From the sequence record OL362041.1: DNA of 64,000 nucleotides. One strand, written 5' to 3'. A model generated the notes under the pieces. That model was not told where the DNA came from. It did no database searches and was given only the letters and a program-made list of their open reading frames with translations. Both the position numbers and the translations under genes were made by a program. Below are positions 9,421-10,578 of the stretch, one piece after another (within the stretch, counting starts at the first letter, position 1; each line of letters opens with the position of its first letter). The stretch comes from Escherichia phage vB_Eco_OMNI12.

Positions 9421-9478
9421 TTTATTCTCCTCAGTAGTAGATAGGGTAATAGTATCACTACCCTATCTAAAAGTAAAC
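9421..9478 (-). promoter_or_regulatory. PeSL-like cassette copy 1: early promoter (-35 GTTTAC 9473-9478, -10 TACTAT 9449-9454) with inverted repeat GATAGGGTA / TACCCTATC
   Basis: Three near-identical ~60 bp elements share GTTTAC-N18-TACTATTACC with a hairpin spanning the -10 region. Confidence 0.55.
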
Positions 9479-9712
9479 TTATTTTTTACGAAAAATTGAT
9501 TTATTTTCTGCTGCCCATTTTTCAATAACTGCAGCAGGACCAGTAACAACAATTTTATCACCGTAATCTTCTGCGGCGAGTTGACCGAAATTATCTAATG
9601 CATCACGAAGAACTCCATGAGGCATTTCACCCATTTTATCTTTCTTGCCAGTGTAAATAAACTCAACTTTTACATCAGCAGTTTCAGCAATAAATTCTTG
9701 GTAAGTTTTCAT
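9479..9712 (-). CDS. Internal-protein-like small protein (N-terminal CTS MKTYQEFIAE)
   Basis: ORF track 9479..9724 (MEIKMKTYQEFIAE); start placed at second ATG with GGAAAT RBS. Confidence 0.6.
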   Translation of the reverse strand: MKTYQEFIAETADVKVEFIYTGKKDKMGEMPHGVLRDALDNFGQLAAEDYGDKIVVTGPAAVIEKWAAENKSIFRKK

Positions 9713-9724
9713 TTTGATTTCCAT

Positions 9725-9788
9725 TTGGTTTTGTTTTGATAGGGTAATAGTATCACAACTAAAACCCTATGTAAACAACTTTGTGAAA
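9725..9788 (-). promoter_or_regulatory. PeSL-like cassette copy 2 (-35 9771-9776, -10 9747-9752)
   Basis: Minus strand TTTCACAAAGTTGTTTACATAGGGTTTTAGTTGTGATACTATTACCCTATC. Confidence 0.55.
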
Positions 9789-10046
9789 TTATTTTAAATC
9801 TTCTAATCGTTTCTTCATCTTAGAACCATTTTTAGCAATTTCTCCTGCATCGGAGCATAATGCTAAAAGTGCTTTAACTTTAGTTTGGTCTCCTTTAAAA
9901 GATGAAGGATCGACCGCAGCAGCAAGTTCTTTAATACGAGAGAAAAGACGCTCAGCTTCAGCTAAAGCCATTCCAAGCTTTACTTCCATACCGTGGGAAG
10001 ATTCAGTGATAGTAGTTTTTGTAGCAAACTCTTTGAAAGTTTTCAT
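9789..10046 (-). CDS. Internal-protein-like small protein (N-terminal CTS-like MKTFKEFATK)
   Basis: 85 aa; RBS AGGAAA upstream; 3' end codons DLK-stop lie inside the repeated element. Confidence 0.55.
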   Translation of the reverse strand: MKTFKEFATKTTITESSHGMEVKLGMALAEAERLFSRIKELAAAVDPSSFKGDQTKVKALLALCSDAGEIAKNGSKMKKRLEDLK

Positions 10047-10119
10047 TTTTATTTTCCTAATTAATTTTGATGAGGTAATAGTATCACTACCTCATCAGTA
10101 TGTAAACAACTTTGTGAAA
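10047..10119 (-). promoter_or_regulatory. PeSL-like cassette copy 3 (-35 10102-10107, -10 10078-10083)
   Basis: Minus strand TTTCACAAAGTTGTTTACATACTGATGAGGTAGTGATACTATTACCTCATCA. Confidence 0.55.
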
Positions 10120-10578
10120 TTATTTTAAATCATCTGCCCAATCGAGTTTAAGAGGCTCTTTGTATTCACGGTCAAGTACAACCGGAATTTGTACATCACC
10201 GCTAAATGATAAGGGCCCAACATTATAAGACAATGTTATATGCGGTGTGTAATCATCAAAATCGTGTGTAGCACCTAGTGCCCGCGCATACATGTGTCGA
10301 CAGCGCAGATATTCAGAATCTAGCACAAGTACAAGAGTCGATCCATCTTGTGTTTTCCACACTTCTAAATGTCCAGAAGAAGCTACTTCAAAACTTCCAC
10401 TCGATGGAACATATGGAACATTTACTCTTGAATAACATATAGTCGAATGAATTTTTTCTCTAGGAACTGGATTAGGAACACGTAAAGAGCGCTGGAGTTC
10501 TTCCAGCGCGTCAAGTGTTAATTCTGAAAACTTAGCTGCTACATAAAGACCCGTTGAAAAGTCTTTAAATTCCATCAT
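10120..10578 (-). CDS. 57B: Conserved hypothetical protein at the T4 57B position
   Basis: 152 aa ORF directly upstream of and overlapping 57A. Confidence 0.6.

Follow-up and report, generated by a model that had tools for sequence, protein, structure and literature searches.

In this study we focus on the interval between genes 57B and trna.4 in a 64,000-nucleotide stretch of DNA from Escherichia phage vB_Eco_OMNI12 (OL362041.1), hereafter called the window, in which two small genes for internal proteins (IPs), ip5 and ip6, lie among three copies of an element combining a promoter and a hairpin. The genes of the minus strand follow each other at this locus in the order gene 1, 57A, 57B, ip5, ip6, trna.4, trna.3, trna.2, an open reading frame (ORF) of 171 amino acids (aa) and the tRNA cluster (Table 1), and the three elements, one per intergenic space, bracket ip5 and ip6. 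Both genes are located between 57B and trna.4, which is one of two hypervariable IP loci, the other extending from e to denV. We regard it as very probable that the locus is the ipI-type hypervariable internal-protein locus of Tequatrovirus in its T6 allelic form (57B/acb1, ip5, ip6, trna.4), built of exchangeable cassettes that encode injected IPs.

The genes flanking the cassettes are readily identified. The 57B product is the anti-CBASS nuclease Acb1 (Pfam PF23474, E = 2.7e-60) and the gene is annotated under the name 57B in T4, PST, T6 and others, while trna.4 matches PHROG 1692 and is annotated as Trna.4 in T4, PST and RB10. Over the 1001 bp of the interval 9200-10200, the window agrees at 100% of positions with many Tequatrovirus genomes in public databases, among them DalCa, fPS-65, G29 and WL-3, and at 99.9% with fFiEco06, where both ORFs are annotated as ip5 and ip6; identity to Yersinia phage PST, where they are annotated as ipV and ipVI, is 96.5%. 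T6 has the same order 57B-Ip5-Ip6, with 85 of 85 residues of Ip5 and 76 of 77 residues of Ip6 identical to the window proteins. Nothing of substance distinguishes the window from this T6/PST allele, except that the window has the extra 171-aa ORF between trna.2 and the tRNA genes, which is also found in RB18, CM8 and T2. The position, the gene order and the flanking elements are furthermore those of the T-even ipI locus of Repoila 1994, as far as that work is described in PMC2839356, PMC4122927 and PMC12373910. Earlier publications thus cover the locus, the names Ip5 and Ip6, the targeting peptide, the promoter repeats and the model of shuffling, and nothing in them is new; with the system published and numerous copies of the sequence in public databases, our finding is a rediscovery.

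Table 1 Positions of the genes and elements discussed in the text, in window coordinates. The -35 and -10 boxes are those of the predicted promoters.
Feature	Position	Strand	Parts and remarks
gene 1	11530..10805	minus	
57A	10805..10575	minus	
57B (anti-CBASS protein Acb1)	10120..10578	minus	Conserved upstream flank of the locus
Element A	10047..10131	minus	Upstream of ip5; TTTCACAAAG 10119..10110; -35 TTTACA 10106..10101; 17-nt spacer; extended -10 TGATACTAT, with TACTAT 10083..10078; 13-bp hairpin 10097..10068 with the -10 box in loop and inner stem; Shine-Dalgarno AGGA; ATG at 10046
ip5	9789..10046	minus	85-aa internal head protein precursor (MKTFKEFATK...)
Element B	9713..9800	minus	Upstream of ip6, begins within the last ip5 codons; GATTTAAAATAA 9800..9789; TTTCACAAAG 9788..9779; -35 TTTACA 9775..9770; -10 TACTAT 9752..9747; 7-bp outer stem ATAGGGT/ACCCTAT 9770..9739; Shine-Dalgarno-like GGAA; ATG at 9712
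ip6	9479..9712	minus	77-aa internal protein precursor (MKTYQEFIAE...)
Element C	9421..9481	minus	Downstream of ip6, upstream of trna.4; without the TTTCACAAAG box; -35 TTTACT 9477..9472; -10 TACTAT 9454..9449; 14-bp hairpin 9469..9438; Shine-Dalgarno GAGGAG 9432..9427; ATG at 9420
trna.4	9235..9420	minus	61-aa predicted membrane protein; conserved downstream flank of the locus
gp21 prohead serine protease	39009-39647	plus	Pfam Peptidase_S77, E = 1.5e-111
gp22 scaffold	39678-40487	plus	Pfam T4_CASP, E = 4.9e-90

The internal proteins Ip5 and Ip6

An earlier reading of the window, made from the letters alone and called here the sequence-only reading, had pointed out the two ORFs, and both exist on the minus strand with the limits it gave. 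Its proposal that they encode IP-like proteins is borne out by protein family searches, since Ip5 matches PHROG 3499 'internal head protein' (E = 1.2e-49) and Ip6 matches PHROG 8111 (E = 1.2e-52). It had also held that the proteins have no recognisable domain; this is correct as far as Pfam is concerned, where no domain was found in Ip5 or Ip6, but both proteins belong to the named internal-protein families just mentioned. These families have few members. Ip5 is represented by 5 protein clusters in 5.8 billion sequences, all of them from T-even phages, and Ip6 by 11 clusters among 5.8 billion proteins; a profile search with Ip6 in 1.84 billion representative proteins gave 7 hits, and the four that were examined (P0017-P0020) all resemble Ip6, three of them with the targeting sequence at the start and the fourth as a fragment truncated at its N-terminus. 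On the sequences examined, the Ip5 and Ip6 families therefore appear very small and confined to T4-like phages.

The AlphaFold2 model of Ip5 consists of two long helices arranged as a helical hairpin (pLDDT 71), and that of Ip6 shows a small ferredoxin-like beta-alpha-beta-beta-alpha-beta fold (pLDDT 81). When the Ip6 model was compared with the PDB using Foldseek, the best matches were generic ferredoxin-like folds (best E = 0.08) and none was significant; against viral models two hits passed E = 0.001, namely the Ip6 of phage VR7 and a 78-aa protein that is 30% identical. Sequence searches of the PDB with Ip5 and Ip6 gave nothing meaningful, and the two proteins could be tied by neither sequence nor fold to one whose function is known.

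The N-termini of both proteins carry the hallmarks of capsid targeting, as the sequence-only reading had noticed. Residues 1-10 of Ip6, MKTYQEFIAE, are those that start T4 IPII and IPIII (10/10). In Ip5 (MKTFKEFATK...) position 4 is aromatic and position 7 is F, in parallel with T4 IPI (MKTFKEFTST...), and the start of T4 IPI, MKTFKEFTSTTTPVSTITE/A, can be set against the window propeptide MKTFKEFATKTTITE/S (the slash marks the cleavage site; the T4 genes were translated from the T4 record). In experiments, residues 1-10 of IPIII were enough for packaging, and the key positions are 4 and 7 for targeting, 8 and 10 for gp21 processing (PMC9026906). The gp21 motif, Leu/Ile-x-Glu followed by a small residue, is found in Ip6 as IAE/T at residues 8-11, with predicted cleavage between E10 and T11, and in Ip5 as ITE/S at residues 13-16. 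The latter is invariant in all 5 Ip5 clusters despite varying propeptide length, the whole ITESSHG stretch being unchanged, and F7, I8 and E10 are invariant in the Ip6 family. Moreover, gp21 and gp22, the machinery that recruits and cleaves proteins with a capsid-targeting sequence, are both encoded in the window.

From these features we infer packaging, cleavage and injection of the two proteins. Both precursors, pre-Ip5 and pre-Ip6, would be carried by the targeting peptide into the scaffold core of gp22, cleavage by gp21 after Glu would follow at ITE/S (Ip5) and IAE/T (Ip6), and the mature proteins of about 7.5 kDa would remain in the head to be injected along with the DNA. The predicted mature products have masses of ~7.5 kDa for Ip5 (pI 9.2) and ~7.4 kDa for Ip6 (pI 6.5).

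Two further ORFs of the window, at 5024-5587 and 5713-6186 on the minus strand, encode paralogous proteins of 187 and 157 aa (PHROG 2280, 'unknown function') that start with targeting-like peptides, MKTYAEFLTE/A and MKSYTQFLNE/A. They are likely further internal proteins, unannotated as such in PHROGs. A GC-rich intrinsic terminator, TTAGCCCCGACCGAAAGGTTGGGGCTTTTT, flanks the 157-aa ORF in two copies (~6236-6265 and 5686-5715, minus strand), the upstream copy being directly followed by a late promoter TATAAATA (6225-6232). This TTAGCCCCGACCGAAAGGTTGGGGCTTTTT repeat is a border element distinct from that of the ip5/ip6 locus.

Promoter/hairpin elements around the cassettes

A search for repeats placed the three elements in one 71-nt family. 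GTGATACTATTACC is present in three exact copies in 64 kb, all at the locus (9445-9458, 9743-9756 and 10074-10087); with up to two mismatches allowed, 4 matches were found against 0.36 expected, a number reached in none of 100 shuffles, the fourth match (52145-52158) being unrelated. TTTCACAAAGTTGTTTACA has two exact copies, at 9770-9788 and 10101-10119, and a copy with 2 mismatches at 4861-4879. All three elements match the PST/T4 consensus TTTACW-N17-TAYWAT, two as TTTACA-17-TACTAT and one as TTTACT-17-TACTAT, with TG at the extended -10 position. Furthermore, 57B (at 10131..10120) and ip5 both end in GATTTAAAATAA, encoding Asp-Leu-Lys-stop; a 33-nt block that is the same in elements A and B begins with it. 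Because the 57B of Klebsiella phage JD18 also ends in EDLK-stop, the D-L-K-stop ending is native to 57B, and it was from there that the 3' end of ip5 was copied.

The sequence-only reading had described most of this anatomy. It had called the elements PeSL-like, after the composite early promoter and stem-loop elements of other phages, in agreement with the consensus match of all three copies and with the stem-loop over their -10 box, and it had rightly seen that the repeat supplies the DLK-stop of both 57B and the upstream IP-like gene. Its statement that a repeat precedes each IP gene holds for elements A and B, whereas the copy at 9421-9478 follows ip6 and precedes trna.4; likewise, the three repeats do have the promoter and stem-loop in common, but the 9421-9478 copy is without TTTCACAAAG. 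The 18 nt that it counted after GTTTAC were in error, the gap between GTTTAC and GTGATAC being 14 nt and the -35/-10 spacer 17 nt. The inverted repeat GATAGGGTA/TACCCTATC is exact in the 9438-9469 copy and not in the other two: the 10068-10097 copy has compensated arms, GATGAGGTA/TACCTCATC, and the 9739-9770 copy a shorter stem, ATAGGGT/ACCCTAT, with its left arm shifted next to the -35 box.

The hairpins are more stable than expected by chance. Folding energies of elements A, B and C are -20.2, -18.1 and -19.5 kcal/mol, with z scores of -5.2, -4.1 and -3.4, and none of 200 shuffles was as stable. Within the class having the 13-bp stem, two neighbouring pairs, both compensated, distinguish the arms GATGAGGTA/TACCTCATC from GATAGGGTA/TACCCTATC, that is, the arms covary; pairing is found in 94.6% of alignment cells as against 32-75% with the partner column slid, and the observed pairing or covariation score was reached by no shuffle. 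A second class of elements has the same right arm, with the left arm placed directly after the -35 box. This covariation supports a conserved hairpin structure without proving it, the sequences compared being related. The sense-strand fold is the more stable one in nearly all of 27 element variants, and about 3 independent G.U wobble events were counted in the hairpins against 1 C.A, a small count in which constant G.U pairs are common by descent. An Rfam search of 9300-10300 at E <= 1 returned two chance-level matches only, so that the hairpins belong to no curated RNA family.

As to expression, we infer promoter use from the match to early promoters. Each gene of the interval has its own composite element, composed of a T4-type early promoter (GTTTACA, 17 nt, TGnTACTAT) followed by a Shine-Dalgarno sequence and a start codon, with the -10 box of each early promoter placed inside the inverted repeat. 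The host sigma-70 RNA polymerase would initiate about 7 nt past TACTAT, within the 3' arm; since the transcript of an element's own promoter starts inside this arm, hairpin formation would be restricted to read-through RNA or to unwound DNA, where the structure would probably serve for attenuation or for the stabilisation of 3' ends. Element A and its counterpart upstream of T4 ipI share an identical 48-nt core, and time-course omics of T4 place the ipI and trna.4 RNAs in the early class, the 57B and 57A RNAs in the middle class and the IpI protein in the late class (PMC9697503, supplementary files 4 and 6). These classes fit an independent early promoter between 57B and ipI, and together with the identical core they lend the predicted promoters indirect support. 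No mapping of transcription start sites was found for the T4 ipI promoter in a literature search, and the T4 GenBank record annotates no promoter features at the ipI locus. Other promoter-like sites exist elsewhere in the 64-kb window. One of them, at 4485-4529 on the minus strand (TTTACG, 17 nt, TATTAT), has its -10 box within an 11-bp inverted repeat, AGGCTCATGAT/ATTATGAGCCT; its architecture resembles that of the locus elements and its sequence is unrelated.

Composite elements in which an early promoter is joined to a stem-loop flank variable ORFs in phages RB49 and phi1, where they are known as PeSLs and where promoter activity, terminator activity and excised mini-circles have been shown (Arbiol 2010, PMC2839356). 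These assays concern RB49 and phi1 only. The PeSLs of RB49/phi1, PST/T4 and nt-1/KVP40 share with the window elements the composite of early promoter, stem-loop, Shine-Dalgarno sequence and start codon, and they likewise lie between genes in a hyperplastic region, flanking genes that differ between close relatives; a subclass with the stem-loop over the -10 box has been described (PMC2839356), and the window copies share that layout. In contrast with the RB49 PeSLs, the window elements have a T4-type -35 box instead of TTGACA, AT-richer stems without polyG/polyC runs, and no U-tract. Indeed, the elements of T-even IP loci have been considered analogues and not homologues of the RB49 PeSLs, with T4 early promoters and weaker, AT-richer stems (PMC2839356). 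The same element type at T-even IP loci is credited to Repoila 1994 in the accounts of that work given by PMC2839356 and PMC4122927, and Comeau 2014 (PMC4122927) reported, besides the PST/T4 consensus TTTACW-N17-TAYWAT, five IP differences between PST and T4.

Cassette variation and proposed exchange at the 57B-trna.4 locus

The 57B-trna.4 interval was compared in 17 other genomes, and records were counted over a phage collection, with the 554 records having a close 57B as denominator. Of these, 251 contain the ip5 body, 221 the ip6 body and 157 a contiguous ip5-ip6 pair. In close agreement with the present finding, ten IP-like ORFs at these loci had reportedly been listed by Repoila in 1994, each with a conserved leader of ~11 residues and preceded by ~70 bp of sequence with an early promoter, this upstream sequence being the proposed mediator of shuffling. 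Among the 17 other genomes, at least 8 different arrangements were found between 57B and trna.4. T4, G4507 and Shinka have ipI at this place and RB18 has ip6, while T6, PST, DalCa and fFiEco06 have the ip5-ip6 pair of the window; the other pairs are ip5-ipI in RB10, ipI-ip6 in teqdroes, ip5-ip7 in T2, and two other IPs in phage 132 and Pu-Krd-SF5. No IP gene and a single element are found in slur11 and in Klebsiella phage JD18, and a tandem duplication, 57B-ip5-ipI-57B'-ip5-ipI-ip8, in CM8. In this Shigella phage (MK962750, 1447-3726) 57B' is truncated and mid-57B is fused to the element that follows the first ipI; the arrangement stems either from recent rearrangement or from faulty assembly. 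Relatives thus hold 0, 1, 2 or more cassettes, as expected from the shuffling that the sequence-only reading had proposed, and the interval, far from being identical across related phages, varies in both content and order.

Every cassette junction carries a copy of the element, and the exchanges can be located within the elements on three grounds. The empty site of slur11 is 2/85 nt off the product predicted by recombination between the window elements; chimeric elements, with mismatched arms from different parent types, are present in RB10 and in phage 132/Pu-Krd-SF5, the stem being largely lost in the latter two; and targeting-peptide codons have been swapped, PST IpVI starting with MKTFKEFIAE where window Ip6 starts with MKTYQEFIAE, a difference in the targeting peptide also seen for one IP between its alleles in Pu-Krd-SF5 and phage 132. 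The elements are moreover better conserved than the adjoining genes, since in JD18, which belongs to another genus (KT239446), the element core and the start of trna.4 (2501-2571, against window 9389-9461) are 93% identical over 73 nt, whereas its 57B is only 69% identical to that of the window at the nucleotide level. The same match to the element and the start of trna.4 is found in many Klebsiella and Raoultella phages.

In the mechanism that we propose, the elements and the conserved targeting-peptide codons provide blocks of 14-33 nt of identity flanking unrelated gene bodies. Homologous recombination over these blocks, in mixed infections or between neighbouring copies, could delete, insert or replace a whole expressed gene. 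The arrangement recalls integron cassettes and their attC sites, which likewise consist of small unrelated genes in tandem and of imperfect inverted repeats whose structure is kept more than their sequence; in the window, however, there is no integrase, each cassette has its own promoter, and exchange is attributed to homologous recombination over 14-33 nt.

Other explanations of the repeats have to be considered. They could be ordinary T4 early promoters, alike because they share a consensus and without any part in gene exchange; a similar -35 box (TTTCACAAAACTGTTTACA) does occur without a hairpin at 4861-4879, and the window has other promoter-like sites. We nevertheless hold this to be very improbable, because identity extends beyond the consensus positions, over the 33-nt block with a stop and three sense codons and over 14-19 nt around the -10 box, and because cassette boundaries in the 17 other genomes fall in the elements, chimeric copies of which exist. 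Even less credible, in our opinion, is an origin of ip5 and ip6 by tandem duplication of one gene and later divergence, with the repeats as remnants of that event and not portable borders. The head-to-tail units, with 298 and 331 nt from start to start among the three repeat copies, and the similar N-termini would fit such an origin, but Ip5 and Ip6 are unrelated in sequence past residues 1-11, their predicted folds differ (helical hairpin as against ferredoxin-like alpha/beta), and each gene is found without the other in relatives (RB18, RB10, T2). Finally, the hairpin itself could be the recombination signal, recognised by its structure, for example as a cruciform cut by a junction-resolving nuclease in the manner of integron attC sites. 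Structure is indeed kept while sequence changes, as the covarying arms indicate, the chimeric elements imply crossovers in or beside the loop, and Arbiol 2010 left the choice between site-specific and homologous recombination undecided, one crossover having been mapped to a loop. We consider this improbable all the same: no dedicated recombinase gene lies nearby, crossovers are also found within targeting-peptide codons and within the 33-nt block upstream, and changes compatible with G.U pairs on the sense strand are tolerated, which would fit an RNA structure equally well, though their count is small.

The second variable IP locus is empty in the window phage, because its e-denV junction (964-1022, minus strand) holds only a single related element, made of AAAGTTGTTTAC, a 17-nt spacer, GTGATAGTAT and the inverted repeat AATTGTGA/TCACAGTT. 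In T4 this junction contains ipIII and ipII.

Possible function of Ip5 and Ip6

Each of T4 Ip1, Ip2 and Ip3 inhibits a GmrSD type IV restriction enzyme of its own (Silas 2025, PMC12373910). The window proteins resemble T4 Ip1 (IPI*), Ip2 and Ip3 (Bair 2007; Silas 2025) in the targeting peptide and gp21 site, in being small, in lying at the same locus or at an equivalent one and in varying in presence among phages, whereas the mature sequences are unrelated. By analogy, mature Ip5 and Ip6 would most likely neutralise a host defence. A more specific proposal is that Ip5 and/or Ip6 are injected inhibitors of a defence other than GmrSD, and that the 57B(acb1)-ip interval is a mixed anti-defence island exchanged via promoter hairpins that conserve their structure; we put this forward as speculative and rather unlikely to hold in this form.

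Several results weigh against the locus as interpreted here, or against the analogy. No late promoter TATAAATA is present at 9400-10200, the nearest one upstream on the minus strand being at 11161-11168, which means that the supply of IPs at head assembly must rely on the persistence of early mRNA or protein, or on read-through. An intrinsic-terminator scan called none at the elements and there is no U-tract after any hairpin, so that the terminator role shown for the RB49 PeSLs may not transfer to the window elements. No virion proteomics of Ip5 or Ip6 was found in the papers searched, among them papers on Yersinia phages. Mature Ip5 and Ip6 have no similarity to T4 Ip1, Ip2 and Ip3, the resemblance being confined to the propeptide. 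Silas 2025 further observed no reproducible inhibition when ip4-ip10 were tried against GmrSD variants, and reported that the GmrSD enzymes of ECOR21 and ECOR17 restrict T6 (PMC12373910). Since T6 is restricted in spite of having both proteins, Ip5 and Ip6 very likely do not block the ECOR21 and ECOR17 enzymes, assuming normal expression in T6, and these negative tests leave the simplest functional analogy unsupported for those enzymes. Compared with the known GmrSD inhibitors, Ip5 and Ip6 show no likeness in mature sequence and no PDB sequence match, and Ip6 no significant fold match.

The proteins might instead be structural or DNA-condensing fillers of the head core without any role against host defence. 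Mature Ip5 is basic (pI 9.2), like the T4 internal proteins, T4 IPIII mutants show aberrations of head assembly (PMC9026906), and no GmrSD target has been found for ip4-ip10. We take this as a serious possibility, although a doubtful one, in view of the near-neutral pI of mature Ip6 (6.5), of the dispensability of the genes, whose varying presence among near-identical phages fits accessory host-range genes, and of the fact that all three T4 internal proteins of known function are defence inhibitors. Ip5/Ip6 are present in ~40-45% of the sequenced phages with a close 57B, and their genes lie directly downstream of the anti-CBASS gene acb1, making ip5 and ip6 reasonable candidates for screens against defences beyond the GmrSD variants already tried.

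Two other features of the window deserve mention. A denV-like ORF (963..664, within 547-963 on the minus strand) ends at an in-frame TGA after codon 99, and its frame runs for ~38 codons past this TGA with similarity to the C-terminus of DenV (...RLDEKI...WYKYYGK); the interruption could reflect a pseudogene, a read-through site or a sequencing error. Within the tRNA cluster, between tRNA-Arg and tRNA-Met, a GIY-YIG homing-endonuclease-like ORF of 221 aa (6659-7324, minus strand) occupies the position of segB in T4.

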